Assembly: GCA_030645735.1 (NCBI GenBank)
Contig: JAUSNP010000006.1
Coordinates: forward strand, 4,095-68,094
Source of the DNA: Candidatus Moraniibacteriota bacterium
GTDB lineage: Bacteria > Patescibacteriota > Minisyncoccia > Moranbacterales > UBA2206
Direction of reading: 5' to 3'
DNA length: 64,000 nucleotides
The position numbers and the translations under genes are program-made. Position 1 is the first letter of the stretch; every line of letters begins with the position of its first letter. Below the pieces are notes generated by a model. The model was not told the DNA's origin and ran no database searches. It worked only from the letters and a program-made list of their open reading frames with translations. Below, one piece after another: positions 17,327-51,015 of the stretch.

Positions 17327-18841
17327 AAAAATAAAATATAATATGCGCCCATAGCTCAGTCGGTAGAGCAGTTGCCTTTTAAGCAAACGGTCCCAAGTTC
17401 GAGTCTTGGTGGGCGCACCTTGATCACTTTTTCTGAATTCTGACAGTTCTTTGAACGGAGATTTCAGCTCTATTACCACGTTTTTCCCATTTATTTTGCA
17501 GTTCGAGCTTATCTTTTTGATGAATTCTCTCTTTTCATCATTAGTTCCCTTTATGTAGCTTAAATAAAGGGATTTTAGGAGTTCGAGTTTTTCGGTAAGT
17601 CTGCGACCGATTGAGTCTTCCTGACCGTTATTGTTAGTCATTTCCTCCTCGATTGATTTCATTTCTCGAAGAATAGATTCCTTCCGATCTTGATATGCTT
17701 CTTTTTCTATGACTTTATCGACGTAAGCATCGGTAAGTCGATCCAAACGAGATTTACATCTTTCTTGGCGAAATTGAATTTCTTGCTGATTCTTCTCCTG
17801 TGTTGTTTCGCGTGATTTTTTCATGCTGGTGACCAGCAAAGAAACCTGCTCAATTTCATCCGGACCCAATTGGAGCGGTCGGAGCAATCCGCGCACTTCC
17901 TGCTCGAAAACTTCTTCCCGGACGCAACTACCCTTGCAAAAGTGACAGCGATAATAGTTGTTTCCTTTTTGCTTTTCTCCGATATACGACCGATTACAAG
18001 ATTGACAGACAAACATCCGCCGAAACAGAAAATCATACCGCCCTGATCCTTTCTTTTTCTTACCACTAAGGATATCCTGGACACTGTCAAACAGGGACTT
18101 GCTGATTAGTGGCTCATGAATGCCGGTAAATATTTCCCCAGTCTTGTTGATTTTAATTATTCCGAAGTAAAACGGACTATGCAGAATCGTCGCAATTCCA
18201 CAACGGGTTAACGCCCCGCCATCCCTGTTCACACACCCCTTTTCAGACATATATGAAGCCAATTTGTCTAACGAATAATCGCCAGTAGCATAAAGTCTGA
18301 ATAATTCTCTGACCAGCGGAGCCTTGGCTGGATCAGGTATCTTGGGTTGGCCTGAGCCCTGATCAAGATATCCGATTGGCGCTCTCATAGGGTAAAGTCC
18401 TTGCTTGAGCCGTCCGTAAAATCCTTTTTTGGTCTCTTCCCTTAGATTGCGGATATAATCGGCGGCTATGACCGCTTGAATATCCGCAGAAAGCCTTCCT
18501 CCTCGCGCATGAAGATCCATATTGTCATGAGCGAAGCGTACATCGGTCCCAGCGTCCAATAATTCGCCCAGGGCAGCCCAATCCTTCAAATTCCGAGCAC
18601 TTCTATCTATCTTGTGAATTATTACTCCTGAGGCCTTTTTGAGGCGCAAATTTCTTAGCATTCGTGAAAAAACCGGACGACCATACTTGGCCGCCGTTTC
18701 ACGCTCTTCAAACCACTCGATTATTTGCAGCTGATTATTTCTGGCATACTGTTCAATGGCAGATTTTTGTTCCTGCAAAGACACGCCTTGCGTTCCCTGG
18801 CGGATAGTTGACACGCGGATATAGCCGTAAACTTGCTGCAT
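17309..18841 (-). CDS. Large serine recombinase (resolvase/invertase N-domain + recombinase domain + zinc ribbon + coiled coil); 3' end of ORF runs antisense through tRNA-Lys
   Basis: YGYIRVSTIRQ...catalytic serine region, SRMLRNL, IHKIDRSARN; later CQSC...RCHFCKGSC zinc ribbon; C-terminal 45 aa are translation of tRNA antisense. Confidence 0.8.
   Translation of the reverse strand: MQQVYGYIRVSTIRQGTQGVSLQEQKSAIEQYARNNQLQIIEWFEERETAAKYGRPVFSRMLRNLRLKKASGVIIHKIDRSARNLKDWAALGELLDAGTDVRFAHDNMDLHARGGRLSADIQAVIAADYIRNLREETKKGFYGRLKQGLYPMRAPIGYLDQGSGQPKIPDPAKAPLVRELFRLYATGDYSLDKLASYMSEKGCVNRDGGALTRCGIATILHSPFYFGIIKINKTGEIFTGIHEPLISKSLFDSVQDILSGKKKKGSGRYDFLFRRMFVCQSCNRSYIGEKQKGNNYYRCHFCKGSCVREEVFEQEVRGLLRPLQLGPDEIEQVSLLVTSMKKSRETTQEKNQQEIQFRQERCKSRLDRLTDAYVDKVIEKEAYQDRKESILREMKSIEEEMTNNNGQEDSIGRRLTEKLELLKSLYLSYIKGTNDEKREFIKKISSNCKINGKNVVIELKSPFKELSEFRKSDQGAPTKTRTWDRLLKRQLLYRLSYGRILYFIFNLLTV
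17345..17417 (+). tRNA. tRNA-Lys (anticodon UUU)
   Basis: gcgccca acceptor, gctcagtcggtagagc D-arm, anticodon loop cuUUUaa, T-arm ccaag-ttcgagt-cttgg, acceptor tgggcgc, discriminator A; CCA not fully encoded. Confidence 0.85.
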
Positions 18842-24642: not shown

Positions 24643-25302
24643 TTATCTGACCTTTGGTTCATTCCAACCATAGACGCCACCTAAATGAAAAGTCACCTGC
24701 CCGCCCTGAGGATATTCCCAATAATCAATAATTCCAGCTTTAACCGAAAGCGGCTCCCCCAATAGATCACGGACCTGACCGTAATTCATGGCCTTGCGAA
24801 GAAGTCTCCATTGAGATAAATTTTTCCACTTGTCGGTAAATACAACGGGCGCACTCTGTGACGTTTCCAGCTGGTGTTCTAAAATATATACTCTTGCCTC
24901 AAGATCTTTAATCTTTTTGTCTACTGAAGAAGATCCACTTTCTTCGTTGGCTTGAATCTTACGAGTTTCTTCAACTGCTTTTATTTCAACCGGATTTTGC
25001 ACTTTTATTGCGGTGGTTGCCGTATCGGCAGGAAGTTCAGTGGCATCTGCAGCTATCGGCGCGACAGAACCTGTTATCCCTTTCCGTAAAAGAGGGTCAA
25101 CCGTTCCCGCCTCTCCAGTGTACGGGTTGATATTCCCTTTGGTGGAGTAATTGTTGGAAATGGTGCTGTCGGGAGCCGTGCGATAATGCGGCTGGACATA
25201 GGTGCCATCTTTACGAACATAGCCCTTAACCTGGACATCCCTGGCGAACACCGAAAGCGGGATTAACAACACCAAAAAGATTGCGATTAAAATTTTCATC
25301 AA
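24643..25302 (-). CDS. Secreted hypothetical protein
   Basis: N-terminal signal peptide MMKILIAIFLVLLIPLSVFA. Confidence 0.4.
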   Translation of the reverse strand: MMKILIAIFLVLLIPLSVFARDVQVKGYVRKDGTYVQPHYRTAPDSTISNNYSTKGNINPYTGEAGTVDPLLRKGITGSVAPIAADATELPADTATTAIKVQNPVEIKAVEETRKIQANEESGSSSVDKKIKDLEARVYILEHQLETSQSAPVVFTDKWKNLSQWRLLRKAMNYGQVRDLLGEPLSVKAGIIDYWEYPQGGQVTFHLGGVYGWNEPKVR

Positions 25303-25565
25303 TCACAGCCGCAAGACGGACTCAACGTGCCATCACAACATAGGGCGCGGCCCTCGCTGCAACCACATACTCCACCATGCCAAGAACAACACCCTCTTCG
25401 CTCAAGCTCCTGGTCAATAAGCTGGCTGGAGACACAAACCTTTTCTTGGAGGGGTGCTGTCGTTTGATGGATCTGCTCGTTGTCGATGCTTGTTTCAGCT
25501 ATTGACGGTGAATAGTTTAAGCCACAAACAGCAAGCGCCAGACAGAGAATCGCAATCTTTTTCAT
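25299..25565 (-). CDS. Small secreted Cys-rich protein (8 Cys in last 30 aa)
   Basis: AGGAGGA SD before MKKIAILCLALAVCG signal; C-terminus GCCSWHGGVCGCSEGRALCCDGTLSPSCGCD; 4-nt overlap with downstream gene. Confidence 0.4.
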   Translation of the reverse strand: MKKIAILCLALAVCGLNYSPSIAETSIDNEQIHQTTAPLQEKVCVSSQLIDQELERRGCCSWHGGVCGCSEGRALCCDGTLSPSCGCD

Positions 25566-25814
25566 TTCCTTTCCTCCTGTTTTGGGTCGGGGCTCATTAA
25601 CAGAAACCGCAAGCACTGTCAGTCCATTGTCTTACCCTTAATGATTAATTTATAGCACTTTATTTTAGCTTATTTGTCAACTTATACCCTTGAATTTCCA
25701 AGGTGAGCCTGCCCGCATTACCTATCAACGCACTTCATTACCCACCGCCCTTAAACCATGTCCTGAGATTCAAGTTTGCCTTCCAAAATTTCGGGCAGCT
25801 GGTTATAACTCACC

Positions 25815-26246
25815 ATGACTAACAAAAAGACCAAACATAAAGACATCGCCCGGATCGACCAAGAGTCTAAGCGTACTTACGGCTGGTATGTCCGAGTCCG
25901 CTACCTCGGCAAAACCCACAGCAAATTCTTTTCTGACAAGAAATGTGGCGGTAAAGATAATAGCCTGCTGACTGCCGTGGCCTGGCGCGATGCCACAGAG
26001 AAAGCGGTTGGTAAACCCCGGACCGACCGGCACATGGTCACCCAGACCCAGATCAGATCGAATACAGGTGAGGTCGGCGTCCGCCTCAACTCAAAGCATA
26101 ATCGTTACGAAGTCAGTTGGGTAGACAAGGACGGCAAGCAGGGTAAAACCTCAGTCTCGATTACTGCCCATGGGAAGTATGGGGCATTTAAGCTGGCATG
26201 TGCGAAAAGGGCGCAGAAAGAGGCGGAACGAATTGGTGTGGAGTAG
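25815..26246 (+). CDS. AP2-like DNA-binding domain protein (domain often N-terminal in integrases)
   Basis: YGWYVRVRYLGKTHSKFF...LLTAVAWRDATEKA pattern; tentative. Confidence 0.35.
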   Translation: MTNKKTKHKDIARIDQESKRTYGWYVRVRYLGKTHSKFFSDKKCGGKDNSLLTAVAWRDATEKAVGKPRTDRHMVTQTQIRSNTGEVGVRLNSKHNRYEVSWVDKDGKQGKTSVSITAHGKYGAFKLACAKRAQKEAERIGVE

Positions 26247-26311
26247 CCGCAAGGCAACCGCGTCCTCTTGCTCTCCCCATCAGGGATGAATTAAAAACCA
26301 CGGAGGTAGTT

Positions 26312-27262
26312 GTGAAAAAAATCATTTTGATAATTATTCAATTACTTGTCAGTGTGTCCATTGCCTTTGGGCAAGGTAACGGGAAGCTTCAAATCCATTT
26401 TATTGATGTTGGTCAAGGTGATGCGGCCCTTCTTATTTCACCGAAAGGTGAAACGGTATTGTTTGATAACGGGGTCGCCAAATTTTGCAACATGCCCGTG
26501 TCGTATTTGCAGCAATTAGGATTGGGTGAAATTGATTATCATATTGCCACGCATTACCACGACGACCATATCGGTTGCTCATCGGAAGTTCTAAGCGTGT
26601 TCCCATTAAAAAAACAAGCTTTTGACAGGGGATACACATACTCATCAGGTGTATACACAAAATACGAAAAAGCAGTCGGCGCTAAACGAAAGAAAGCAAC
26701 TCAAGGCGATAAAATTGTACTCGATTCCACATCTGAAACCCCCGTATACATCGAGTTTGTAGCGTTAAACGGCGGTGGGATAAATACTTCAAACGAGAAT
26801 GATTTGAGCCTAGTGTCGGTTGTCCATTATGGCAAGTTCGATGCTGTTATAGGTGGCGACCTAAGTGGGTTTGACGAGAATGATTATAAAGATATTGAAA
26901 GCACAGTGGCCAACAAAGTTGGACAAGTTGAGGTGTATAAAGTTCATCATCATTGTAGCAGCTACAGTACAAATGACACTTGGTTGTCAGTTGTAAAGCC
27001 TAAGGTCGGTATTATTTCGGCGTCAGGGACAATTGGAAGAAACCACAACCATCCGACTCAAAACTGTCTTGAAAGGCTTCATAAAGCAGGTGTGAAAACC
27101 TATTGGACCGAGATCGGTGGAGGTGCGACCCCTGAGCCTGCATGGGATGTCGTGGGTGGAAACATTGTTGTTGAAGCCGAGCCAAATAAAGATACTTTCA
27201 CAGTAGTTTATAATTGGTCTAACAAAGACACATATCCCTTGTGGGAGACGAAAGAACAATAG
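26312..27262 (+). CDS. Secreted metallo-beta-lactamase-fold hydrolase (ComEC C-terminal domain-like)
   Basis: GGAGGT SD then GTG; signal peptide; HFIDVGQGDAALLISPKGETVLFDNG and HYHDDH motifs. Confidence 0.55.
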   Translation: MKKIILIIIQLLVSVSIAFGQGNGKLQIHFIDVGQGDAALLISPKGETVLFDNGVAKFCNMPVSYLQQLGLGEIDYHIATHYHDDHIGCSSEVLSVFPLKKQAFDRGYTYSSGVYTKYEKAVGAKRKKATQGDKIVLDSTSETPVYIEFVALNGGGINTSNENDLSLVSVVHYGKFDAVIGGDLSGFDENDYKDIESTVANKVGQVEVYKVHHHCSSYSTNDTWLSVVKPKVGIISASGTIGRNHNHPTQNCLERLHKAGVKTYWTEIGGGATPEPAWDVVGGNIVVEAEPNKDTFTVVYNWSNKDTYPLWETKEQ

Positions 27263-27498: not shown

Positions 27499-28068
27499 TT
27501 ACTGCCCTGTACCCTTCATGGTTTTATCCAAATCAACATCCCCTAAAGGCAAAGAGACAGAGCTTCCAGACTGATAAATAACCAACTTATCACCCTGGAC
27601 AATAGCAGAATCACAAGGCAACCAAGCGCCATTTTTCAAGTGTACCTTTTTTATGCTATTGCTATTTCCGCTGCCACTGACAATAGGATCAATGCTACTT
27701 CCAACTGAATTGTTAGATTTGTAAGCATTATTGTCCATAGAAGGCGGAGGTTTAACAGCTGGTGGAGTGCTCGGTGCCGGGGTGTACGTGCTATACCCAC
27801 CACCACTACCAGAATAATGACTTGAATGACTGGCATGGCTTCGATGACTTGAGTGGCTACGATGGCCAGCAAGCACCATATTGCCAGAATCATTAGCTCC
27901 TCCTTGCATAAGGAAAAGATCCGGTTTTTCAGATCTTCTCAGAGGCATTGTCGCAAGCATGCGAACAAATTCGGTTTGCATTGCCTGGCTTTTGCTGGAA
28001 TCAAGCCCGAGCATCGTCAGAGAGAACACAATCATAGCCCAAATTTTCAACATCACCCATCTAGCCAT
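27499..28068 (-). CDS. hxsA: His-Xaa-Ser repeat protein (HxsA-like), secreted
   Basis: Signal peptide; run HRSHSSHRSHASHSSHYS = six consecutive H-x-S repeats, followed by Gly/Ser/Pro-rich region; adjacent to two rSAM genes. Confidence 0.6.
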   Translation of the reverse strand: MARWVMLKIWAMIVFSLTMLGLDSSKSQAMQTEFVRMLATMPLRRSEKPDLFLMQGGANDSGNMVLAGHRSHSSHRSHASHSSHYSGSGGGYSTYTPAPSTPPAVKPPPSMDNNAYKSNNSVGSSIDPIVSGSGNSNSIKKVHLKNGAWLPCDSAIVQGDKLVIYQSGSSVSLPLGDVDLDKTMKGTGQ

Positions 28069-28118
28069 TAGTATGCCCCTTTCCTGATGTTGTTGATAAC
28101 ATTATGACACCGGTTCTA

Positions 28119-29252
28119 TCAACTAAACGCAGAGATCGACTGACTTCTGTGTGCTTGAGCCGAGTGAAAAAATCCTCCGCATGCAGACTGCATCTTACAA
28201 CCTTCACATTCCTGGAAGTAGATATTTTTCCATTCAGAAATCGACTTCCGAGCGAAAGGCCAAAGTGATTTTGGCAGCGTACAAATCTGGTGGTTATAGA
28301 TAGACACATTCATGCCACGGCGATGCAAGGATTTCACAGATTTTTCAAGTTGCTTCGCATAATCAGCGGGATCAATCCAAACTTTGTCTATGTTTTCTGC
28401 CGCTAACCCGATTGGCTCTAGTCCCATCAAGGCAACGTGATCAACAAACGGGAATGTCCTGTATACGAATTCAGCCCACTTTTCCAATCGTGAATAATTG
28501 GATTGCATGATGACAGTTCTTAATTCGACGCAGATTCCAACCCTAGCCAGGTTATATAATCCCTCGACGGTTTCCCAAAAAGCCCCTCTCACACCGACGA
28601 TTTCATCATGGAGAGAATCAACATCTCCATACAGAGGCACACAGGCGAACAAGTTTCCTTCGGCTAACTCTGCAAGTTCTTTCGCTTTAACAAAATCTTT
28701 TAACAGCCGGGCATTCGTCAGAAGTTGAATCGAAGTGTTTGGAAGAAATTTCCGTGAAGCTGATACAACCTTAAGTAACCCTTCCCAGTTGAGGGTTGGC
28801 TCACCTCCGGTTATGCCCAGCACCTCAAGGTCTGGGTCTATAAGTGAGATAATTTTGGAAGAAAAATCGGCCAAATCCTCTTGGTCTGGTTGAGGCGGTT
28901 GCGGGCATGTAATGCAATGTGAATTACACCGATTGGTGACAAGCACCGCATTGGAACGAGATTTCTTTTCGTATAATACAGTGCCCCCTTCATTGGGTGT
29001 CAGGAGAATGACATCGCCCTTTTCCACAACATAGTTTTCACCTAAAAGCTTAAAAACCGGTGAGTCACAATTTTCAAACACTGGAGAAGAGCTGTTTAAT
29101 AATAGGCCAGTTCGTTGTGACCTGCTCTGGGGGTCATTAAATATGAAAATATGAGAATCTGGCTCTGTGGCATGAGGAGAAACAGCTCCTGAGATAATTT
29201 TACCTATCAGGCTATAGGAAAAGTTGACTGCAACTCCTGTAAAGGTTCTCAT
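28119..29252 (-). CDS. hxsC: Radical SAM enzyme (HxsC-like maturase partner)
   Basis: CNSHCITC CxxxCxxC cluster motif, GGEP SAM motif. Confidence 0.6.
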   Translation of the reverse strand: MRTFTGVAVNFSYSLIGKIISGAVSPHATEPDSHIFIFNDPQSRSQRTGLLLNSSSPVFENCDSPVFKLLGENYVVEKGDVILLTPNEGGTVLYEKKSRSNAVLVTNRCNSHCITCPQPPQPDQEDLADFSSKIISLIDPDLEVLGITGGEPTLNWEGLLKVVSASRKFLPNTSIQLLTNARLLKDFVKAKELAELAEGNLFACVPLYGDVDSLHDEIVGVRGAFWETVEGLYNLARVGICVELRTVIMQSNYSRLEKWAEFVYRTFPFVDHVALMGLEPIGLAAENIDKVWIDPADYAKQLEKSVKSLHRRGMNVSIYNHQICTLPKSLWPFARKSISEWKNIYFQECEGCKMQSACGGFFHSAQAHRSQSISAFS

Positions 29253-29255
29253 GGT

Positions 29256-30725
29256 TCACATCTGAGTTGCGTTCGCAGAATTTTCTGCCAAAGGCTTGCC
29301 AATAATCCATGACCAGAAAATATCTTCAATATCTTCGTCATCCTTCGCTAAGTATTCAAAGATCACACGAAAAATGGCCTTATGCTTACGGCAGAAATCA
29401 TTTTCTGGTCTTTTGCCAACCATATCACCATAGACAGCGTAATTCCTAACTGGATCGGCACCGCAATAGGACTGAAAAACGCACCAAGCACAGCCAGGCA
29501 GTGCCTCTATACAAGAAGAACTGATTATTTCTCTCAGTCTCTCACTTCCAAATATTTCACGCCAAGAGTGGCTATGAGCGTTCCCGACACAAAAAGATTT
29601 ATCACCTTTGGAATGTGCCAGCATCCGGGCTTCATCCGATACATACACATCCCCGTTTGTGTCGTAAATCACGCCCCCAATTCCAACACCTGCTGGAGAC
29701 TGCAAATCCACAAATCCTGTCGAAAATGGGGTCAGAATTCTTGATAGCAATAGGGTTGTAAACATTTCTGGGAAATACACCCCGGAACGGTTGATTTGGA
29801 TAATTTTATCTAACGCCTTTGCATAGGCATCGACAAAATCATCCACAGAATAACCAAGCCGGTTCCACTCAGCTGATGCATAGCCGAGCGGGTTAAGCAT
29901 TCTTAAGAAAATAGAACCCAATCCTCGGGCAATATATTCGTCAATCACTTCATCAAGGTGATCAATGCTCAAGTCAGTGACAGTCATTAAAGCTGAAATA
30001 TTATCATGGCCAAGAGAAGATTGAGCTAGTGCCAAGTTTGCTGTCACATTTTTATAGCTTCCTTCTCCACTTCTATTTTTACGAAACTCGTCATGAATAT
30101 ACTCAGGGCCATCCAATGAGGTAGAAATATAAATTTTATTAGATTTAATATACTCAAGTTTATCTTCATCAAGAGCAATCAAATTTGTACAAACGACAAA
30201 CTCTAAATTCTTTTTATATTTTTCATTAAGCTCTAGCGAATACTCAACAACACTTTTCAAAACATTAAAATTCAATAGTGGCTCACCACCCTGAAATTCA
30301 ATTTTGATAGACTTAGCCGGACTCATAAAAACCAGTTCAACGCATTTTCTTGCGGTGGCAACATCCATATCAAGCACATCTTTGTCTTCAACACAAACCG
30401 ATGAAGCATGGCAGTATGCGCACCTTTGATTACACCTTCGAGTAAGAACAAACATGTGAAGAGAAGTAAAATCATACAGAAACTGTTTTTTAGTGCGGTA
30501 TTTGGTGGCCAGCAAATCTATCACATTAGAAAGATGAGAATCCCAGATCATGTTTTTGGATTTTAAATCTAGGTATTCACTGGATTCCGGCGAAATTTTT
30601 CGCCCGATCAATGCGTCAAAACTTGATTCTGGAAGGAAATGAAAATCTCCGACATCATTCACAAGGAGCACCCGATCCGCTACGCGCTCGAACCGGAATG
30701 GCAAAAAGCGATAAGACTGGCTCAT
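29256..30725 (-). CDS. hxsB: Radical SAM/SPASM-domain enzyme (HxsB-like maturase)
   Basis: CNQRCAYC rSAM motif, GGEPLL, C-terminal Cys-rich SPASM-like CIEALPGCAWCVFQSYCGADP. Confidence 0.65.
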   Translation of the reverse strand: MSQSYRFLPFRFERVADRVLLVNDVGDFHFLPESSFDALIGRKISPESSEYLDLKSKNMIWDSHLSNVIDLLATKYRTKKQFLYDFTSLHMFVLTRRCNQRCAYCHASSVCVEDKDVLDMDVATARKCVELVFMSPAKSIKIEFQGGEPLLNFNVLKSVVEYSLELNEKYKKNLEFVVCTNLIALDEDKLEYIKSNKIYISTSLDGPEYIHDEFRKNRSGEGSYKNVTANLALAQSSLGHDNISALMTVTDLSIDHLDEVIDEYIARGLGSIFLRMLNPLGYASAEWNRLGYSVDDFVDAYAKALDKIIQINRSGVYFPEMFTTLLLSRILTPFSTGFVDLQSPAGVGIGGVIYDTNGDVYVSDEARMLAHSKGDKSFCVGNAHSHSWREIFGSERLREIISSSCIEALPGCAWCVFQSYCGADPVRNYAVYGDMVGKRPENDFCRKHKAIFRVIFEYLAKDDEDIEDIFWSWIIGKPLAENSANATQM

Positions 30726-31060
30726 GGCTGAATTTTGCTCACGATGATATCGAGGTTATCAACTGGCTCGAAAGCCTGAGCAATGATCATCTCTCGAACC
30801 AATTTATAATCTCTTCCGACATCGACTCGTATTTGATGATCGGTAACCAAACGGATGAACTCGGAAATCAAGGAATCTGGAGTTGCTTCTGAGATCGATA
30901 CAGGCACATTGAAATTTACCTGGATTCTTCCCGCCGATGCAGTTTCGATGACTATCGTCGCTTTCTCTGTGAAATCATAGGAAGCATTCTTTATTGCCTC
31001 CAGAGAATACACTTTAGCGTCGAAACTAGTTGATACCACAACGTTATTCAATCTATTCAA
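30722..31060 (-). CDS. hxsD: Small protein at head of cluster (HxsD-like)
   Basis: 112 aa, translationally coupled (4-nt overlap) to hxsB-like gene; assignment by context. Confidence 0.4.
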   Translation of the reverse strand: MNRLNNVVVSTSFDAKVYSLEAIKNASYDFTEKATIVIETASAGRIQVNFNVPVSISEATPDSLISEFIRLVTDHQIRVDVGRDYKLVREMIIAQAFEPVDNLDIIVSKIQP

Positions 31061-31136: not shown

Positions 31137-31922
31137 CTAATTTTCGAAAATTCGTCGTGTATCATTAAGCACTGCCCTAAGGAGCACTACTGAGCTTGCA
31201 ACTTGATGCGCAACCTCGTCGTCTGTCATTTTTCTTCCGTTTTCTTTGTAGGCAGCGTTGGCAATGGAGATAGATGAATTGGCAATTTTCACTATTTCCC
31301 GTTTCAAGTCATCCTCAGAAGAAACCACAATCTTTTCAGAAAGAATACCCTTTCCCATGTATGGCAGAACTTCGTCAAACCTCGCATCGAAAGCGCCATG
31401 CGCCTTGCCCGACCATAGCCCTTCGTCATGATAAACTTTACCGTCGCTTGCAGGCTCATCCTTGTAAGGGTAATTATGCAGCGGTTGAGAGAGATCACCT
31501 ATCAGATGTGCGATTGTCATCAGTCCATAATTATAATCTGACGAGTATTTCGTGGTCTTAATTTTCCGATAAAGGTCAACAATTTTCCAATACAAAACAC
31601 CCGATTCCGCTGGCACCATGATCTTAATAGACCGCGACGCCGGATCAGCTTTCGGAACATATTCTTGTTCTGAAACGCCATATTTATCGATATATTCGGG
31701 TGAGACTGCCGTATTCGGAGCCGCATTGTGATAATGGAACTGAACCAACAGGTTGTAATTATCGTACCGTGAAGCGTCGGGGACACAGGCATTTTCCGGA
31801 TCGTCTAAACCTGCTTGATGAGCTATGAAGCTGTGGGTTTGACATGACCATCCATAGCAGATGCTAGCAGGTAACGCCATGAACATCCCGAGCAACACGA
31901 CAGGTTTCATTATTTTGCGCAT
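31137..31922 (-). CDS. Secreted zinc-dependent phospholipase C / S1-P1 nuclease superfamily protein
   Basis: GAGGTG SD; signal peptide then mature N-terminus W-S-C-Q-T-H (Trp-1/His ligands), HYHN, HLIGDLSQPLH zinc-site-like motifs. Confidence 0.5.
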   Translation of the reverse strand: MRKIMKPVVLLGMFMALPASICYGWSCQTHSFIAHQAGLDDPENACVPDASRYDNYNLLVQFHYHNAAPNTAVSPEYIDKYGVSEQEYVPKADPASRSIKIMVPAESGVLYWKIVDLYRKIKTTKYSSDYNYGLMTIAHLIGDLSQPLHNYPYKDEPASDGKVYHDEGLWSGKAHGAFDARFDEVLPYMGKGILSEKIVVSSEDDLKREIVKIANSSISIANAAYKENGRKMTDDEVAHQVASSVVLLRAVLNDTRRIFEN

Positions 31923-31985: not shown

Positions 31986-32162
31986 TTATTTTCCCAAATG
32001 TTTTCTTACTGCTGCGCCGGATGTACCAACAGCTTTTACAGCAGCTTTAAGCTCTTTTTCTGAACAACTGAGGGCCTTACACCAGTTTCTGACCTCAGCC
32101 GGATCATTGATGTCAATGCGTTTTGCATCAAGCGGGTGTGTGATTTTTTTGTTGTCCGTCAT
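31986..32162 (-). CDS. DUF3606-like small protein
   Basis: 58 aa MTDNKKITHPLDAKRIDINDPAEVRNWCKALSCSEKELKAAVKAVGTSGAAVRKHLGK; preferred over overlapping plus ORF 31861..32181. Confidence 0.45.
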   Translation of the reverse strand: MTDNKKITHPLDAKRIDINDPAEVRNWCKALSCSEKELKAAVKAVGTSGAAVRKHLGK

Positions 32163-32768: not shown

Positions 32769-33890
32769 ATGACGACTGATTTCAGTATTAACAAGGTTGT
32801 AATCCACGAGCTAATCAAAGAACAGCACAAGGGAATACAGCCATCAAATATACGGCCCAGTGTTTTAGATGGCAGGAATGAAGCTGTTAAAAAATTAATC
32901 ATGGGCATTACTTCCCTTTACGGAAGACGTAACAATAATGCCCATTATGGCACATTCCGAATAGGCGAAGGTCGCGGTTCATTTCCAGATCATTTTGAAT
33001 CATATGCCCTCGTTATGCCACCCACCGAAGATGTCTTCTTGGCATTGACCCAAATCGCCATGAAATCTTTGTACTCAAAAGCCGAATTAAGCCCTCTAGC
33101 ATCAGGTGGCTACATTTTATTTTGTGACTACTCAAACCAGCAAGGTCGATATTTCTTAACCGCAATGGTCAAGCAAAAAGAAGGCATTAAACTGAGCGAA
33201 GCTTTGGAACCAGAAGAGCTTGTTCAATTAGATTTAAGTCGGCTCCACCAAGCTGCACGAATCAATTTTGGTAAATTATCGGCATATTTAGCGGCAGACG
33301 AAAGAGATCGGCTCGAATTAAGTTATTTAAGTTTCGTAAGCCCACACACAGGCAAAACCGCCGCTGGTTATTTTATAACTGCTCTTGGCTGTGCACCTGG
33401 AGCCGGTTCTGCACGCGCCACAGAGACATTGATTCAGGAGAGCACAAAGTTCTTCAAAGAGAATGAGACGCTACAGCCACACGCCAGAGAGTTCAAAATC
33501 AACCTAATCGCTTACTTGCAAAGAAAAAAAGAGTCCGGTGAGTCCGCAAAGCTTTCGGAAATAGAGGAAATTGCTCGGCCATTTATGCCTGCCGATGAGT
33601 CTGGCCAAGCCGACGACCTTGTAGATGCTTTCATTACTCGCTTAAATAGTGAAGAGCTGGCAGTTCCAATTGAGTTTCCAGTAAGTAAGCGTGCCCTCGG
33701 CAGATATACGCATATAAAATATAAGGCGGACAACTGGGAATTAAACTTTGAGCGAGGGGCACTCGGCAATGACGATACAGCCGACATTTACTATGACACT
33801 GCTCTAAATCGTATCATAATAAATCAAATCCCTACTGGTGCGATTGAATTAATCAAACAAGAACTTGATAGCCGCGTAACTGAGCAATAG
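32769..33890 (+). CDS. Nucleoid-associated protein NdpA/YejK (NA37) family
   Basis: N-terminus INKVVIHELIKEQ...YGTF typical of NA37 family; tentative. Confidence 0.5.
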   Translation: MTTDFSINKVVIHELIKEQHKGIQPSNIRPSVLDGRNEAVKKLIMGITSLYGRRNNNAHYGTFRIGEGRGSFPDHFESYALVMPPTEDVFLALTQIAMKSLYSKAELSPLASGGYILFCDYSNQQGRYFLTAMVKQKEGIKLSEALEPEELVQLDLSRLHQAARINFGKLSAYLAADERDRLELSYLSFVSPHTGKTAAGYFITALGCAPGAGSARATETLIQESTKFFKENETLQPHAREFKINLIAYLQRKKESGESAKLSEIEEIARPFMPADESGQADDLVDAFITRLNSEELAVPIEFPVSKRALGRYTHIKYKADNWELNFERGALGNDDTADIYYDTALNRIIINQIPTGAIELIKQELDSRVTEQ

Positions 33891-33893
33891 ATA

Positions 33894-35114
33894 ATGTCAC
33901 TCTCATATTTTATTGAATTATTTCGAATTGCTGGGAAACCAGCAATTACTGGAGGAATGTTTTATGCGAGTCTAATTTACGACTCAAATGTTTCTAAGCT
34001 CATTACAGAAATACGCAAAATCAAAGCAGCAGTTTATTTCGATGAAATTATCGTCGATGGCTCAGAAATACTCGACACCAATCCACTGCCAGAGACATGG
34101 AGCAAAATTCAATTCACACTCAAGCTACCAGTTGATTCTTCAAGGAGGTTTTATCAATCTATTGAGGATCTAATCAACTGGCCCAAAACCTCAAGAGGTG
34201 AGCTACCTGAGGAATTCTATATAGTTGACCATGATTATTGCAGTGGCGAAGAGCCAATTCCTGCTAAATTGGAAAAATTGCTCAGTATATGTAAGCTTAT
34301 AAAGTCGTTATCATGTCTTGCCAATTATCATGACGAAAAAGCTGAATCTGGATATTACAAATTAGTATTTATCCAATCTAACGATACTCAATATTTGCCA
34401 GCGACAGTCATTGAAACAAAGATAAGTAAAGAAATTCTAGAATTTTCAACCCCAGACATTAGATTGGTTCAGGGCTTATGTTCAGAAACTGCCAAGACTG
34501 ACCCTCATTACAATTTACAGATAGGTGTTTTTTCTGTATCTATTACTGATTTCATGAGCAAATCACCAGGAAATGGACAGTCTTTTTCTTTTCTAATTCA
34601 GAATTGGAAAGATTTCTTAGAAATATACCAACAAAACCTAAGCACATATTTAAGTGGATTTTCTTTTCACAAGGCAAAAAAGGAAGTTGCTGAAACAGAA
34701 CTAAAAATGGCAGAACAGTTTTCTAAAGTAATAAGTGACATCACAATTAAACTATTTAGCATCCCAGTATCATTCGCAGGGGTTATTATTATAGCGAAGC
34801 CAGTTAATGTTATCGAGAGTTCATTAGTTGAAATTGGCCTTATCCTTGCTGCATATCTTATTGATTGTACTGTTGACAACCAGCAACGTCAATTATCTTG
34901 TATAAGTGATGCGAAGAATATCGTCTTAAATTCTTTCGAGGGCAAAAAGGCAAGCTATCCGGATGAACTGAAAGTTGCTGTTAAAGGAATGAAAACCAAA
35001 CTTGACGAAGGAGAAAGAAAACTGCGCCGATCATTAATTTCTTTCCGTGTGTTGAGTTGGTTACCTCCTATTGCCGGCATGGTTCCGCACATTTATTATC
35101 ACTTCCTATCCTAG
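33894..35114 (+). CDS. Hypothetical protein with C-terminal TM segments
   Basis: 406 aa, starts 4 nt after NA37 stop. Confidence 0.4.
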   Translation: MSLSYFIELFRIAGKPAITGGMFYASLIYDSNVSKLITEIRKIKAAVYFDEIIVDGSEILDTNPLPETWSKIQFTLKLPVDSSRRFYQSIEDLINWPKTSRGELPEEFYIVDHDYCSGEEPIPAKLEKLLSICKLIKSLSCLANYHDEKAESGYYKLVFIQSNDTQYLPATVIETKISKEILEFSTPDIRLVQGLCSETAKTDPHYNLQIGVFSVSITDFMSKSPGNGQSFSFLIQNWKDFLEIYQQNLSTYLSGFSFHKAKKEVAETELKMAEQFSKVISDITIKLFSIPVSFAGVIIIAKPVNVIESSLVEIGLILAAYLIDCTVDNQQRQLSCISDAKNIVLNSFEGKKASYPDELKVAVKGMKTKLDEGERKLRRSLISFRVLSWLPPIAGMVPHIYYHFLS

Positions 35115-35510: not shown

Positions 35511-37436
35511 CTACGTTTCCTCCTCCTGCCACAATTTTTCCATCTTCTCTTTTGACCTGTTACTAGGAACTCGCTTGCCGTTTTCCCATGATTGAACCGA
35601 GCTAGGATCAGCCCCAAGCAATTTGGCAATTTCCTTTGTAGAGAGTCCAAGGTGTGTCCGGAAAAGGCGTAATCTTTCACCTTCCGTTTGGGAAGGCTCG
35701 ATAAGGCAATATCCCAGGAAAGAAAATATCTTCGGATAATGCCGGACGGAGGGTGGGTAATGGTTCAACTCCCACTTATTAACCGAACAAGAGTCTACAC
35801 CAATCACTTTGGCCACATCTTTCTGCTCAAGGCCAAGTTCCAACCGTTTTGCTCTCAGATGATCGCCAAGAGTTACTAACTCACTGGGATGCTTGGGATT
35901 TTGAGGCCGGACAGAGGCTTTAGTTACAGGTGACAACTTAGCAATGAAACCATGAGTATTCGTTGCTAAGTTGTTGTCATTTAGAAAAAAGGGGAGGTAG
36001 TGCAGATTGACGGCTACTTCGTCTTTGTGGATGATGATGCTTTCGGTAATGGCTTCCACGATTTGGTGTTGTTCGTCGCGTGACATGATCGACCAACGGG
36101 AATGAAGGTCTTTGGTTTCGGACATAATTTGCTCAGAGGATAGATTCTTAATTTTCAAAAAGTCTATCTCACTCTGGAGTTTAGGAAGCTGGTTGTCCAG
36201 TTGAGCAAAACGCTCTTCAAGAGGTCTGTGTTTTCTCCCGAATCCTTCCTTGGAAATCTGTCCGTCCATGTAGAGGTCATAGAGCTTATCCATCTCCCGC
36301 CCAAGATCGGTTTTTTCTTTTTTCAGGACTTCCAGTTGTTGAGACTTTTCCCGGATCGTGTCATCGGCTTGGTGAAAATAGGTGGCCAGGTCATCCTCAG
36401 AAAGCAGGAAATCCTTGAGCTGTTCTTGGTAAATTGCTTCCAAGTCTTCCGCTGGAATTTTGTTGCGGCACTTTACACATGTGTATTTCTTGCTGCCCGA
36501 AGGCACATACATCTTGCCATCACAATGGCAGAAAGTGAGCCCTGCAAAAAGGTGGGTAGCTGGTTTCCTCGGGATTCTTTTTCCGGACTCTTTCTGATCA
36601 GCCAAAATGGCGTTGCATTTTCCCCAGAGTTCTTCCGTAACAATCGGCTCGACGCTGGAAAAGACCCATTGATCTTCCGGTTTGAGCTCCCAATGTTTCC
36701 TGTCACCAGTACTCCGGGTGTAATTGGCCCGACGCATCCCTTTGGCAATAGGATCGGTAAGGAGCCTATCGACTGTGGTGTCTGTAAATTCTCCACCGTT
36801 ACGAGTCCGATAGCCTCTTTGGTTGAGTAACCTTGCCACGGTCTTTTTCCGCTTATGTTCCAAAAACAATTCGAACATAAGTTGGCGGATGGGAGATTCG
36901 TGAGGATTCACGACCAGGCTTTTGCCTTCCCACTGATAGCCGAAAGGGGCAGCCCCTCCGAGTGGTTTTCCTAATTGTGCCCGGATCGGCACAGAGGCGG
37001 CCACTCGATCACTGATTTCTTCGCGCTCCCATTGGGCCATGGCGGCAATCATTGTGTAAAAAAGTCTACCAGCTGGCGAGGTGGTGTCGATAGCCTCCTG
37101 AAGGGAAATCAGACCGGCATCAGATGATCGAAAGATGTCGGCAATGTCCAGAAGTTCACGGGTATTCCGGGCAATGCGTGCTAACTTTGAAAAAATAATC
37201 CCCGAGATATGCCCAGACCGAATGTCAGCAATCATGCGTTGTGCTTCAGGATGATCCAACACGGATTTACCGCTGACGCCGGAAAGATTGTAGAGCTCAA
37301 CAACATTCCAGTTCTTCGACTGCGCGTAGTATCGAGCGCGTTGTTCGTGGTTTTCGGGGCTTTCCCCCTTGGCTTGATCTTCCGTTGATACCCTAACCCA
37401 GATACCGACACGTTTAGAACTTTGCGGTTTATCCAT
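35511..37436 (-). CDS. Large serine recombinase fused to two C-terminal XRE-type HTH domains
   Basis: VGIWVRVSTEDQ catalytic Ser region, recombinase domain, Cys-pair zinc ribbon CHCDGK...CVKCRNK, coiled coil, then two HTH-like segments. Confidence 0.8.
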   Translation of the reverse strand: MDKPQSSKRVGIWVRVSTEDQAKGESPENHEQRARYYAQSKNWNVVELYNLSGVSGKSVLDHPEAQRMIADIRSGHISGIIFSKLARIARNTRELLDIADIFRSSDAGLISLQEAIDTTSPAGRLFYTMIAAMAQWEREEISDRVAASVPIRAQLGKPLGGAAPFGYQWEGKSLVVNPHESPIRQLMFELFLEHKRKKTVARLLNQRGYRTRNGGEFTDTTVDRLLTDPIAKGMRRANYTRSTGDRKHWELKPEDQWVFSSVEPIVTEELWGKCNAILADQKESGKRIPRKPATHLFAGLTFCHCDGKMYVPSGSKKYTCVKCRNKIPAEDLEAIYQEQLKDFLLSEDDLATYFHQADDTIREKSQQLEVLKKEKTDLGREMDKLYDLYMDGQISKEGFGRKHRPLEERFAQLDNQLPKLQSEIDFLKIKNLSSEQIMSETKDLHSRWSIMSRDEQHQIVEAITESIIIHKDEVAVNLHYLPFFLNDNNLATNTHGFIAKLSPVTKASVRPQNPKHPSELVTLGDHLRAKRLELGLEQKDVAKVIGVDSCSVNKWELNHYPPSVRHYPKIFSFLGYCLIEPSQTEGERLRLFRTHLGLSTKEIAKLLGADPSSVQSWENGKRVPSNRSKEKMEKLWQEEET

Positions 37437-37541: not shown

Positions 37542-40500
37542 CTAGCTCTTCATCTTTTTCATTGAGTTTACAATCAGCTTGGCAATTGCGTCCTGCCGTT
37601 GCTTTTGCTGGGCGGCTTCTCCTGCCGTATAGTTCACTCTCACTTTATAACCCCGGATGGTTTTTTGCTGCTCCATTTTTGGGGTCTGTTTTGAGTCAAG
37701 AAACACAATCAGCTCTTCTGGCGAGAGATAACGGATTCTCTCATGAGTGCCAGCATCCAGCACCTCAACTGCCAGTTGACGGATTTTGTTCAGCTGAGAT
37801 TTTTCATGCGAAAGAACCAGTACAGTTTCATATCCGGCGGCCAAACATTTTTGGATATTTTCTAATTCATGAGCAGCCGAGGTGGTCACCGAAATCTCAC
37901 AGGCTAATTTTTCATTCTCTTTCCTAAGGGAAACATCCACGATTCCCGTGCCGCCCAAGACGGATAGCTCGACCTCGGCTTTGTATCCACGCTCTTCTGC
38001 CAAGCGTTTGATGAGCTGCTGAAGGTATCTGTGCTGAACCCCGCCCCGCCCAGAAGTAGGTTGATCAGGTATGGTTGATTTTCTTCGGGCATCATCTTTG
38101 GGTGATTCATTTCGAGGAGATTGTTCAACCGTATTAGGTTGAGCTTCAGACACTCGCTCGACTCTAGACTCTCCATTCTTCTCACCAGCCGGAGGTGGAT
38201 TTTCCGCTTCTAGCATTTCGATTACTTGGCTTTTGGGAGTCCCGTATTTCTCCCTGGATCGATTGACTATGGCCAGTCGAGCTTCGGCATTCTCATTTCT
38301 TTCCGGAAGCGGGAAAGTCCTTAGATTGAAATCGTATTCTGCTTGCTCAATGCGTCCTACGGCTTGGCCAATAGCCAAACTCTGAAGATCCTTGGCATCG
38401 AAAAAAGAAAAGCCACCCGCCAGTTTTACGGCGTCATGATCACCCATGCGAAAGCAGATGCGCGTGTACGGATTGGAAAGTACGGAGCTGGCCACATCGC
38501 GGTCTTTGGACTCTAATTGTCGCAACTCTTGATGAGCCAGAACGAGTCCTAGTCCATATTTTCTGGCTCCGGAGAGAATGCCTTCCATGGAAGGGGTAAT
38601 GAAATTTTGAAATTCATCGATGTACAAGAAAAAGGGCTGCCGCTTTTCTTGCGAAATTGCTTGGCGGCTCAATGCCAATTGATGAATCTTGGCCACGATG
38701 AGGGCACCCAGAAGATATGAGTTCTCTTCGCCGATACCGCCGTGAGAAAGTTTGGCCAAGAAAATCTTTTTCTCATTCATGACTTGGCCAAAGTCGATAC
38801 GGTTTTGTTTCTGTGAGACCATATACCGGATGAGCTTTGGACGTAGAAAGGTATCCAGGCGGGTCAGAACTGGCCCTTGAGGCTTGCCGGTGAGAAGCGG
38901 AAACTCTTTTTCCCAGTAGTAAACAATCTCCTGGTCACGCACGGTTTTTAAATATTTTCGCCGAAAATCCGGTTCAATCAAAAATCGCCGGAGGGTCATG
39001 AGAGTTCCGCCTTCATTACTTTCCAGCATGGCCAAAATTCCATTGGCCAACACTGAATTCATCTGGTCGCCCCAGCTGGTGGACAGTCGGCGAAAGACCC
39101 CGACCAGATCAGAGGCAAGAAGAGTTTTTTCCGTTTCCGAGTGCGCCCCGAAGATATTGAAACCAATCGGGTACTCTTCATCGGTTGGGTCAAACAACAC
39201 TACGTCATCAAGGCGCTGCGGCGGGATAAAGTCCATGATTTGGTCTATTAAATCGCCGTGGGGGTCAAGGACGGCAATTCCGTGGCCATTCTGAATATCT
39301 TGGATGATCAGATTAAGCAGCAGTGTGGATTTACCGGTGCCTGATGCGCCGACGACATACATGTGTCGCAATCTCTGCTCAGAACTGAGCGAGACATTCT
39401 TGATCCGGCCATGGTGGGCATTCTCTCCTAAAAGGAGCTGATGATTTTCTGACAGACCCGGAGCGGCCTTGGTCTTTTTGGCGTTGCGTAAAAACTTTGC
39501 GCTCCTGATCGACGAAGACGGGAAATGGACGAAGTTGATCAACTCATCCAGATTGAGAAGTATTCCGCTCCGGTTGGTCAATCGCCCTACCACATTCTGT
39601 GCATGAATCTCATCGGGATAATCTTTGTTGTGTAGCGGAATGAGGCTATTGCTGCCGGGAGAATTAAATTGAACCAGCGCCCCGCCGAGACTTTTAACGA
39701 TGGAGTTGGCTCTTTGCCGTGATGAACTTTTGGCACCGACTCGGACGACTGCCCCATAGAGAGGTTTCTCAATCTTACTTCTGACACTTTTTGCCAGTTC
39801 GGGGGCATCCGCCAGAAACGGTTTGCCGTTCCAGTCTAGGGCAGCAAATTGCAGACTATCCGCCCACGGACAGCGAGCCGGTAGGAAGATAACTTGAAAA
39901 ATACCGATGTCCGTTTCCTGGCACAGAGACAAGGCACCAATAATTCCAATCAACGGATCGACATCAAATCGGTCAGTACGTTCCAAGGGCAGCATGGATT
40001 CTTGATCCAAGCCGAAATCAACAACAACTGTCTGGTCATTGCGAGGATCTTCCCAGGGGACGGAGAAGAGCCCCTGCTCTTGGGTAATCACAGCCTCGGG
40101 CAGATACGCTTCCAGTTGCGTGAGGATTTCTGGGCGGTCGCGTTGGCGAACAGCCAACTGAACCCAAATTTGGTCGGCAGTGCCGATGAGCTCAAAACAG
40201 ATTGGAAAACGGGAATAACTCAGTGATTGTAGGAATTGATCGGCCAAACGTTTTTTGCATTCATAGGACGGCGGTAGGACAATTTGCAACTCGCAGATTT
40301 CACCTTCGGGAACATACAGGTCGGGCAGATCTTCCGACTCTTCTTCGTAATAGTTGGCGGTGGATTCTTCTGGATTTGGCGATACGGAATTTCGAAATGC
40401 GTCAGCTATCGAGCTAAGAAAGGTGGGCTTCCGCCCGTCATCTATGACTTGGGCTGGCGGAATATAGTGTCCACGAAATGGTTGGAACGGTGGTTCAGGG

Positions 40501-40622: not shown

Positions 40623-40635
40623 GCTTCACCGACAG

Positions 40636-41172
40636 TTATAGGTTGAAGAAATTACGCATCACTGGCTTCCGATCAGTTTCTGAGAGGACTTTGAGTCCAT
40701 TGGTCTTGGTCATGCCATCCACCACTTCCAACACGGCGCTATGAACCAGGGACTGATACATGCTGGCGGTATCAACGGTGTAATACGTGGTGGTACGGAA
40801 CCATTTTTCCATCAAAGATCCAAGAATCGGAATCCACAGTATGAGTGACCAGAAAAACGAAGGCATTTCTCCCAGCCACCAGGAAATGAAGAAGCCATTG
40901 CCAAAAGGAGCGCCACAAATATCAAAGGTCAGTCTCTTTCTGCGAACACGTAGATATTCCCGTTTTGCAGAAAAGATGCCCCCTTCCTTCCAATCTACAC
41001 GGGAAAACTTGGCCTCGGGGATTAGTTTTGTTTTTAGAGCATTTTGCACATCGTCATAAAATTCTTTCGGCGAAGCAGTCAGGCCTTCGACAAAAGTGCT
41101 CCAGTGGGAAATTACCATGGGGGCTTTGGGCATGGATATTCTCCTTAGCAGAATTTGAAGCCAAAAACGCAC
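40636..41172 (-). CDS. Small membrane protein
   Basis: 178 aa with hydrophobic helices FFISWWLGEMPSFFWSLILWIPILGSL. Confidence 0.4.
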   Translation of the reverse strand: MRFWLQILLRRISMPKAPMVISHWSTFVEGLTASPKEFYDDVQNALKTKLIPEAKFSRVDWKEGGIFSAKREYLRVRRKRLTFDICGAPFGNGFFISWWLGEMPSFFWSLILWIPILGSLMEKWFRTTTYYTVDTASMYQSLVHSAVLEVVDGMTKTNGLKVLSETDRKPVMRNFFNL

Positions 41173-41232
41173 AAAATAGAGTTGGATAGTTACCGATTAC
41201 CAGCGACATTTCAATGACAAAAAGCTGAGACA

Positions 41233-45184: not shown

Positions 45185-45239
45185 AAGTCTACAAAACCAC
45201 CGTGATTTAAAACAGTTAATGAAATATTGAAGAAGAATC

Positions 45240-51002: not shown

Positions 51003-51015
51003 GCGTCACGACGAT

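Follow-up and report, generated by a model that had tools for sequence, protein, structure and literature searches.

A His-Xaa-Ser gene cluster with a variant HxsA and neighbouring genes for predicted secreted nucleases on a mobile island of a Moranbacteria genome

Four tightly packed, co-oriented genes on the minus strand of a 64,000-nt stretch of a Candidatus Moraniibacteriota genome (contig JAUSNP010000006.1; 'the window' below) make up a complete His-Xaa-Ser (HXS) system, with all four genes intact. According to the open reading frame (ORF) listing, they stand in the order D-B-C-A, which is the canonical HXS order. An earlier note on this DNA had described these four genes, among them a signal-peptide protein with six H-x-S triplets and a G/S/P-rich region and two radical S-adenosylmethionine (SAM) genes with the motifs CNQRCAYC and CNSHCITC, and all of this is found at the locus.

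The hxs genes and their variant substrate

The genes and the two parts of HxsA that matter most here are as follows.

30722-31060, minus strand: hxsD, 112 aa, TTG start with a possible later start 7 codons on; small accessory protein for the maturation module
29256-30725, minus strand: hxsB, 489 aa, radical SAM / SPASM-like maturase, with a 4-nt overlap between its start and the hxsD stop
28119-29252, minus strand: hxsC, second radical SAM maturase, 377 aa, after a 3-nt gap from hxsB
27499-28068, minus strand: hxsA variant, putative exported effector/substrate, 189 aa, after a 50-nt gap from hxsC
27811-27864 (aa 69-86), minus strand: six tandem His-Xaa-Ser triplets, HRSHSSHRSHASHSSHYS (HRS HSS HRS HAS HSS HYS), read from the sequence
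about 27511-27648 (aa 141-186), minus strand: predicted C-terminal small beta-barrel of HxsA, from an AlphaFold2 model

The window proteins were searched with Pfam and with the curated cut-offs of NCBIfam/TIGRFAM. The HXS families TIGR03976-03979 were reportedly first defined by Haft and Basu in 2011, a work that appears in the reference list of the Li et al. study discussed below. HxsB scores 566.4 bits against TIGR03978 (cut-off 370, E 4.5e-170) in a full-length match (8-474), HxsC, whose gene adjoins hxsB, 361.9 bits against TIGR03977 (cut-off 267.9, E 1.7e-108), and HxsD 62.3 bits against TIGR03976 (cut-off 50, E 4e-17). HxsA reaches 75.8 bits against TIGR03979 (E 4e-21), below the cut-off of 121.65, and matches profile positions 5-114 of 190 only. 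By these scores the pattern of four hxs genes is not due to chance. Together with the D-B-C-A order they uphold the earlier identification of the locus as a His-Xaa-Ser system. The profile check proposed at that time comes out above the cut-offs for HxsB, HxsC and HxsD and below it for HxsA, so that the set is complete in having all four families, with an HxsA that is non-canonical and has no peptidoglycan-binding domain. The hxsD product carries the annotation PF27806 (HxsD), and the same gene on another contig is called at 105 aa.

Among the four proteins, Pfam returned the radical-SAM cores only. Both enzymes have a CxxxCxxC motif and a second Cys motif, as members of these families do. In HxsB the cluster motif CNQRCAYC begins at residue 98 (C98/C102/C105), and the C-terminal cysteines 379, 405, 412, 415, 421 and 445 form a SPASM-like tail in which C412/C415/C421 are invariant across 8 HxsB sequences. 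The Cys-rich tail that had been read as SPASM-like is therefore present, while the Pfam SPASM model gave no match to HxsB. In HxsC the motif CNSHCITC begins at residue 109 (C109/C113/C116), and these residues and C349/C352/C358 are conserved relative to a Klebsiella protein. The motifs of HxsD are degenerate (SYDF, and LVTDHQIRV versus LYW / LLNDYxLRE-type), with Y28, D74 and R78 conserved.

A sister locus (L006), 91% identical in DNA, allows selection to be estimated. The ratio of nonsynonymous to synonymous substitution rates (dN/dS) is 0.22 for HxsD, 0.09 for HxsB, 0.09 for HxsC and 0.10 for HxsA, and from this range of 0.09-0.22 we conclude that the four hxs genes are maintained by selection. 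A scan for promoters and terminators over 27.2-32.8 kb gave the same counts as shuffled sequence. PADLOC-DB 2023, which has no HXS model, returned only weak viperin-like matches to the radical-SAM cores and was uninformative.

HxsA is laid out as a signal peptide, a KPDLFL leader, the HxS array, a low-complexity G/S/P-rich linker and the predicted beta-barrel. Its N-terminus is a hydrophobic signal-like segment, MARWVMLKIWAMIVFSLTMLGLDSSKSQA, ending in ...SKSQA; the signal peptide would cover about aa 1-29 (nt 27982-28068), with a cleavage site read from the sequence by eye. Tandem repeats combined with an N-terminal signal-like segment are what marks an HXS substrate, and in all frames of the 64-kb window the only H-x-S array of at least three units is the one in HxsA. 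The protein also scores below the cut-offs for HxsA2 (NF038296, 41.3 vs 48), HxsA3 (NF038309, 25.2 vs 65) and HxsA4 (NF038313, 20.3 vs 55).

The C-terminal part sets this HxsA apart. Pfam found no domain in it, including no PG_binding_1 (PF01471), the domain present in most HxsA relatives. PF01471 is also absent from five close relatives (33-87% identity), the only ones among 5.8 billion clusters, which share with the window HxsA a C-terminal segment of ~50 aa. The AlphaFold2 model predicts five strands and a short helix for residues 141-186, with a predicted local distance difference test score (pLDDT) of ~85, and disorder for the rest. A Foldseek search with this model returned only generic Sm/SH3-like barrels (Hfq/Sm, designed SH3) at E >= 0.02, and because the matches are so generic we do not claim a nucleic-acid-binding Sm domain. 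In other HxsA relatives the C-terminal segment resembles PEGA or SH3 domains by eye or is missing, so the HxsA tail is modular.

The HxsB of the window has its closest relatives in other types of HXS system. In 80 metagenome loci with the closest HxsB proteins (44-57% identity), most substrates are short HxsA2-like peptides. Likewise, the variant systems with HxsA2, HxsA3 or HxsA4, such as the one on plasmid p057_G of Nostoc sp. C057, have HxsB proteins 43-57% identical to that of the window, closer than the enterobacterial ones, and the p057_G locus also has a thermonuclease gene beside hxsC. However, the HxsA2/A3/A4 substrates are 80-120 aa long, end right after the repeats and are often encoded upstream of hxsD, whereas the window HxsA continues into a linker and a predicted folded C-terminal domain.

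Substrates vary further among the metagenome loci. Short HxS substrates in L014-L093 are 79-109 aa long and end 1-6 residues past the repeats, several loci have genes for two or three distinct HxS proteins (e.g. L059, L077, L044), and the C-terminal parts of long HxS proteins vary widely, with cadherin/Ig-like repeats in L001. Several copies of hxsB appear damaged: in E. coli O157:H7 493/89 (L097 4273-5650) the annotation gives a frameshift, in Parabacteroides leei (L002 8001-9390) the gene is split over two frames, and in Woesebacteria (L009 4723-6190) it was not called as a gene and lacks ~30 N-terminal codons.

Comparison with the characterised E. coli system

The earlier note held that HXS has no known chemistry or function, a statement that is now outdated. 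Li et al. showed that HXS acts broadly against phages by blocking the entry of their DNA (Nat Commun 2026, PMC13128918; bioRxiv 10.64898/2026.01.06.697848). The E. coli hxsD-B-C-A operon restricted 110/113 coliphages without abortive infection and with adsorption unaffected, and the four genes suffice for defence (PMC13128918). A delay of DNA entry was seen by a DpnI/Southern assay and by electron microscopy, and T7 escape mutations fell in the ejectosome proteins gp15 and gp16 (PMC13128918). The signal peptide and the peptidoglycan-binding domain of HxsA are both essential; HxsA is cleaved N-terminally only when HxsB, HxsC and HxsD are all present; and the radical-SAM CxxxCxxC and second Cys motifs of both enzymes are needed for cleavage and defence (PMC13128918). 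The active species is the large cleaved HxsA, residues 48-214, and the cleaved periplasmic protein carries a +8 Da modification localised to SHRSS, the last repeat (PMC13128918). HxsC binds HxsD, and periplasmic HxsA binds DNA in vitro (PMC13128918). PMC13128918 does not settle whether entry is blocked through DNA or through phage proteins, nor the chemistry of the +8 Da modification. These experiments on E. coli family members accord with the earlier proposal of a secreted protein whose His/Ser residues are targets of the radical-SAM pair.

To stand in for the characterised system we took a Klebsiella plasmid operon (L013), whose DNA is 99.8% identical to one E. coli chromosomal operon and 74-97% identical to the other operons sampled. 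Its HxsA and radical-SAM enzymes share the residue numbering of PMC13128918, and its HxsD is offset by two residues. By tblastn, the window proteins are 31% (HxsB) and 36% (HxsC) identical to those of L013. The residues that Li et al. mutated, thereby inactivating or impairing the E. coli system, are all conserved in the window: C98/C102/C105 and C412/C415 in HxsB, C109/C113/C116 and C349/C352 in HxsC, and Y28, D74 and R78 in HxsD. The E. coli system thus has the same four families in the same order, both Cys motifs and the Y/D/R residues of HxsD.

The substrates also correspond over their N-terminal parts, since both have a signal peptide, a leader motif, a AGHRSHSSHRSH...SH.S array and a G/S/P-rich linker. 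The core AGHRSHSSHRSH..SH.S of the window HxsA aligns with Klebsiella/E. coli HxsA, and the conserved SEKPDLFL aligns with the essential pre-repeat region, E. coli residues 23-47 (...DLVIAPL). The last window repeat, SHYSG, aligns with SHRSS, the +8 Da site in E. coli, and among the HxsA relatives retrieved SHYSG is the commoner ending. The differences are that E. coli HxsA has five repeats with SHRSS last, whereas the window protein has six with SHYSG last, and that E. coli HxsA has PG_binding_1 where the window HxsA, below the equivalog cut-off, has the predicted small beta-barrel.

At two E. coli loci a gene outside the published four-gene system lies beside hxsA. In L097 (7435-9247) and L098 (7417-9024), a DUF6119 / TIGR04141 'sporadically distributed' gene is co-oriented and begins 19-69 bp past hxsA; the operons of these loci match the Klebsiella query at 94% and 74% identity, and the DUF6119 gene is frameshifted in one of them.

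The host, the island and the secreted neighbours

The host is a member of the Candidate Phyla Radiation (CPR). The DnaK of the window shares 83-94% identity with DnaK proteins that bear the names Moranbacteria, Moraniibacteriota or Parcubacteria, and an identical HxsA is on record in a Candidatus Moranbacteria metagenome-assembled genome, on a contig of 330 kb. CPR bacteria have been placed in a monoderm clade (10.1101/2021.05.31.446380), whereas the E. coli system belongs to a proteobacterium and 99.7% of HXS systems were found in Pseudomonadota; across HXS systems, 99.6% have the D-B-C-A order (PMC13128918). The Pseudomonadota or diderm host typical of HXS is therefore missing here, this being a feature of distribution and no strict criterion of membership.

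The cluster is carried by a mobile island, and the following features lie on it or at its ends.

17412-42408, unstranded: mobile island carrying the cluster; left end in the tRNA-Lys 3' end, right end approximate
17345-17419, plus strand: tRNA-Lys(UUU)
17309-18841, minus strand: large serine recombinase (Pfam Resolvase/Recombinase); its 3' end overlaps tRNA-Lys(UUU)
24643-25302, minus strand: 219-aa secreted protein, no family match; overlaps the next gene by 4 nt
25299-25616, minus strand: secreted Cys-rich protein with a C-terminal CCSWHGGVCGC...CCDGTLSPSCGC motif, a recurrent neighbour of HXS and staphylococcal-type nuclease (SNase) genes
25815-26246, plus strand: AP2-domain DNA-binding protein; its 3' end overlaps the annotated start of the next ORF
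26198-27262, plus strand: metallo-beta-lactamase (MBL)-fold hydrolase of ComEC C-terminal type, Lactamase_B, predicted to be secreted or membrane-anchored; convergent with hxsA
31137-31922 (ORF to 31958), minus strand: predicted secreted S1/P1-type zinc nuclease; ends 76 nt upstream of hxsD, co-oriented
31986-32162, minus strand: small DUF3606 protein (PF12244), co-oriented upstream of the nuclease gene
32769-35114, plus strand: NA37 (YejK-like) gene and, 3 nt on, a 406-aa gene without family match
35511-37436: large serine recombinase (Pfam Resolvase/Recombinase)
37542-42408: two ATPases resembling type IV secretion system coupling proteins (TrwB_AAD_bind)

Synteny with L006 stops at 17412, inside the tRNA gene, which suggests insertion of the island into the tRNA-Lys 3' end. 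Outside it lie housekeeping genes, hrcA-grpE-dnaK-dnaJ on the left and frr, rseP, mreB, mreC and PBP2 on the right. DprA, RadC, DUF3768 and the NA37 nucleoid-associated protein are also encoded on the island. A search for direct repeats marking the island ends gave chance-level matches only, as expected for serine recombinases. A prophage origin was considered and dropped, because nothing among the annotated ORFs is phage-like and the content resembles that of integrative and conjugative or integrative and mobilisable elements. The NA37 gene and its 406-aa partner stand where L006 has AGS_C/MBL genes. E. coli HXS is likewise island-borne, and 23% of E. coli hxs operons overlap prophage predictions (PMC13128918). 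The mobile island with an S1/P1-like gene, an MBL-fold gene and a Cys-rich secreted protein, as the earlier note had it, is borne out in every part.

Unlike E. coli HXS, the window cluster is flanked on both sides by genes for secreted proteins, a predicted nuclease (S1/P1) and a putative one (MBL). The S1/P1-like protein scores 29.4 bits against Pfam S1-P1_nuclease, 0.1 under the gathering threshold of 29.5, and a sequence search of the PDB returned nothing meaningful, so that the match needed a fold comparison. Its AlphaFold2 model (pLDDT 90.3) has as its best 21 PDB fold matches the nucleases S1, P1, BFN (plant bifunctional) and SmNuc1 (E 1e-4 to 6e-3, template modelling score ~0.5), with phospholipases C matching more weakly. 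The residues W25, H30, D49, H63/H65, H139, D143, H149, H175 and D179 are invariant in 32 homologues, and their His and Asp probably correspond to the zinc ligands of P1 nuclease. The protein has a signal peptide whose removal would leave an N-terminal Trp. With this Trp, the predicted ligands and the all-alpha fold of the model, it qualifies on sequence and modelling grounds as a member of the S1/P1 zinc nuclease family. The gene has a dN/dS of 0.12 vs L006, S1/P1-hxsDBCA forms a single 4.45-kb block of 91% nt identity in L006, and the DUF3606 protein is conserved with this module there (93% aa identity). We rejected the idea that the S1/P1-like family is dedicated to HXS, since no hxs genes flank three homologues, from Geobacteraceae, Thermodesulfovibrio and Desulfobaccales, as far as their flanks are available (one contig ends at the gene).

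The MBL protein matches TIGR00361 ComEC_Rec2 with 83.9 bits over profile positions 418-660 only, and may be a second accessory nuclease. It probably starts later than annotated, near VVVKKIILII, because the AP2 gene 3' end overlaps the annotated start. Homologues of it adjoin HxS-repeat genes in L036 and L044. The Cys-rich protein has no Pfam or NCBIfam match; over 35 aa it shares 80% identity with the C-terminal end of a secreted protein whose gene lies next to SNase and hxsD in Woesebacteria (L009). Its motif, CCSWHGGVCGC...CCDG(T)LSPSC, is also found at L009 6950-7363, L014 1688-2020, L032 10469-10882 and L059 250-585, and proteins with it recur within a few kb of hxs clusters. At two loci it is combined with an Ada-like zinc motif (YHYPxC...GYxPCKVCKP) that elsewhere is fused to SNase.

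Nucleases recur beside related clusters. We ran local hidden Markov models over 93 loci, collapsed to 67 at 90% HxsB identity, and counted as adjacent any ORF within 1.3 kb of the cluster ends. Adjacent positions hold 12 signal-peptide nuclease ORFs (SNase with or without the Ada-like zinc motif, S1/P1, MBL) in 11 of the 67 loci, versus only 3 in the remaining flanks, which contain 2.2-fold more sequence (binomial p = 1.4e-4); this makes them ~9 times denser next to the cluster than further out. They lie just upstream of hxsD or just downstream of hxsA, are mostly co-oriented, and nearly all begin with a signal-peptide-like sequence. In Syntrophobacteraceae (L007) an SNase-Ada-Zn fusion gene starts 5 bp past the hxsA stop; in Woesebacteria (L009) an SNase gene and an Ada-Zn/Cys-rich protein gene lie against hxsD; and on a Nostoc plasmid (L012) a thermonuclease gene follows hxsC. 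The metagenome loci with an adjacent nuclease are L014, where an SNase gene starts 31 bp past hxsA, L017, L036, L039, L041, L042 and L050. The place of the window's MBL gene, directly downstream of hxsA, is taken in the sister island L006 by a staphylococcal-type nuclease gene, likewise convergent.

A candidate DNA-entry defence and its alternatives

We hypothesize, at roughly even odds (about 50%), that the locus is a functional HXS DNA-entry defence in a variant form, in which HxsA has a non-peptidoglycan C-terminal domain and accessory secreted nucleases destroy the arrested DNA. On this hypothesis the Moranbacteria genome would carry a defence module as cargo of a serine-recombinase island at tRNA-Lys. 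By homology to E. coli, we infer for this copy that HxsB and HxsC-HxsD would, in the cytoplasm, cut off the N-terminal leader of HxsA and put a small covalent modification into its last repeat, SHYSG. The matured, histidine-rich and basic HxsA would then be exported and, on the outside of the cytoplasmic membrane, would hinder DNA coming in from phages or other foreign sources. The host is reported to have no outer membrane, and because the peptidoglycan-binding domain gives way to a predicted small beta-barrel, the retention of HxsA in the envelope would have to work differently. The S1/P1 nuclease, encoded upstream and co-oriented, and the ComEC-type MBL hydrolase, encoded downstream and convergent, may degrade the DNA held by HxsA, which would convert a delay of DNA entry into its destruction.

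A more specific proposal, which we offer tentatively and would not ourselves bet on, is that the window represents a previously undescribed HXS subtype. In it, a matured DNA-binding HxsA would team up with dedicated, apparently interchangeable secreted nucleases (S1/P1, staphylococcal-type, ComEC-type MBL) in a 'catch and cut' barrier outside the cytoplasm, and a new beta-barrel domain for anchoring or oligomerisation would fit this barrier to a CPR cell that has no outer membrane.

Several observations weigh against the DNA-entry defence hypothesis and the role it gives to the nucleases. Function is carried over from proteins only 31-36% identical, the periplasmic model was built on a diderm, and E. 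coli HxsA needs the peptidoglycan-binding domain that is absent here. Nucleases are dispensable in E. coli, where four genes are enough, and the MBL gene lies on the strand opposite to hxs. The adjacency test was partly post hoc, as some of the loci had inspired the idea; in the loci fetched later, 7 nucleases were adjacent and 4 non-adjacent (hand-estimated p ~0.03). Adjacency is seen in only ~16% of the related loci, and the S1/P1-like family occurs away from HXS too. No adjacent nuclease was found in the two E. coli loci and one Klebsiella locus inspected, nor among 25 HXS loci on viral contigs (L099-L123, IMG/VR), one of which (L115) has an MBL gene ~1.3 kb from an HxS gene. We therefore rejected a nuclease link as a universal feature of HXS. 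Given the limits of the test, the nuclease-free loci and the S1/P1 relatives outside HXS, we take the nuclease to be an optional accessory, confined to a minority subtype, and not a defining part. The ~25 loci on contigs classed as viral, of short HxsA2 types as well as the enterobacterial long-HxsA type, indicate that HXS is also carried by (pro)phages.

The same observations can also be read, with less probability in our judgement, as an ordinary four-gene HXS defence on a mosaic island where the S1/P1, MBL and Cys-rich genes are unrelated cargo. The sufficiency of four genes in E. coli and the nuclease-free Klebsiella, E. coli and viral-contig loci favour this, as do the occurrence of the S1/P1-like family in housekeeping contexts without HXS and the convergent MBL gene, which is not co-transcribed. 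The segment downstream of hxsA also differs between the window and L006, which shows frequent reshuffling. However, the S1/P1-hxsDBCA block is kept at 91% identity while its surroundings vary, and the SNase genes of L007 and L014 sit only 5 bp and 31 bp from hxsA. Moreover, in at least 11 non-redundant loci of distant taxa, the two slots bordering hxs are occupied by nucleases with signal peptides that belong to three unrelated folds. We consider it improbable that the module mainly serves another end than phage defence, with the matured His-rich wall protein and the secreted nucleases catching and breaking down extracellular DNA for nucleotide salvage by a CPR bacterium of presumably limited biosynthetic capacity, or with HxsA binding and delivering metal (Zn/Ni) to secreted zinc enzymes. 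In favour are the reduced genomes of CPR, the genes for DprA and a ComEC-type domain on the same island, the classical role of histidine repeats in binding metal, and neighbours that are zinc enzymes (S1/P1, MBL) or have Cys-rich or Ada-like zinc motifs. SNase, the commonest partner, is nevertheless dependent on calcium and not on zinc, the nuclease association is the same in free-living non-CPR taxa, and the module resides on a mobile island and not in the core genome. The binding of DNA by HxsA in vitro would suit scavenging, but the sole experimental data for the family concern phage defence (PMC13128918).

The resemblance of HxsB to peptide-modifying maturases raises a further alternative, a classical pathway for a ribosomally synthesised and post-translationally modified peptide, in which the HxS segment would be excised to give a small modified peptide, an antimicrobial or a signal, with the remainder of HxsA as its carrier. 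HxsB has in common with PapB, the SCIFF maturase and the anaerobic sulfatase maturase a radical-SAM core and a Cys-rich C-terminal auxiliary-cluster region, and its closest clade mostly has HxsA2-like substrates of 80-100 aa that end just past the repeats. However, its matches to PapB (134 bits) and SCIFF-type models are far below their family cut-offs. In contrast to those maturases, the window enzymes would act on an exported protein of ~190 aa, with two radical-SAM enzymes and HxsD working jointly. The operon has no peptidase or exporter gene, and ~100 residues follow the repeats, including a conserved domain, predicted to be folded, under purifying selection. With the active E. coli species being the large cleaved HxsA 48-214 (PMC13128918), we give this alternative very little credence.

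HXS is already known as an anti-phage system; what is new here is the CPR host, the different effector tail and the nuclease flanks. The window copy extends to CPR a system reported almost only from Pseudomonadota, and so tests the generality of the 'periplasmic gatekeeping' model; its main value lies in comparative evidence on how HXS works and adapts outside Pseudomonadota. The modular anchoring of the effector (peptidoglycan-binding, PEGA-like by eye, small-barrel or none) provides natural domain-swap experiments. The recurrence of secreted nucleases of three unrelated folds bears on whether HxsA engages DNA or phage proteins, and suggests a stronger, two-step form of HXS defence. If the 'catch and cut' pattern is true, it would be independent support for HxsA acting on DNA itself and not on phage proteins. 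Phage-encoded superinfection exclusion by T4 Imm/Sp, which acts when DNA enters, and nucleases outside the cell or in the periplasm that restrict DNA uptake, such as Vibrio cholerae Dns, follow a similar logic, in that foreign DNA is stopped or destroyed before it reaches the cytoplasm. To our knowledge, these are unrelated proteins, none of which involves an effector matured by radical-SAM enzymes.

The contig carries a second defence system ~18 kb from HXS. On the plus strand at 48852-52854, a GajA-like gene (AAA_15 and OLD-type TOPRIM, 716 aa) overlaps a GajB-like gene (UvrD helicase, 622 aa), forming a Gabija-like pair. A direct repeat of ~105 nt, at 45229-45347 and 52914-53019, brackets a 7.6-kb segment that contains this pair and an M23/CARDB protein. 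No Rfam or tRNA match was obtained at the repeat sites. The repeats are 88-93% identical to L006 16964-17083, which abuts the recombinase end of the L006 island, and may be what is left of the att sites of a second inserted element using the same recombinase family.

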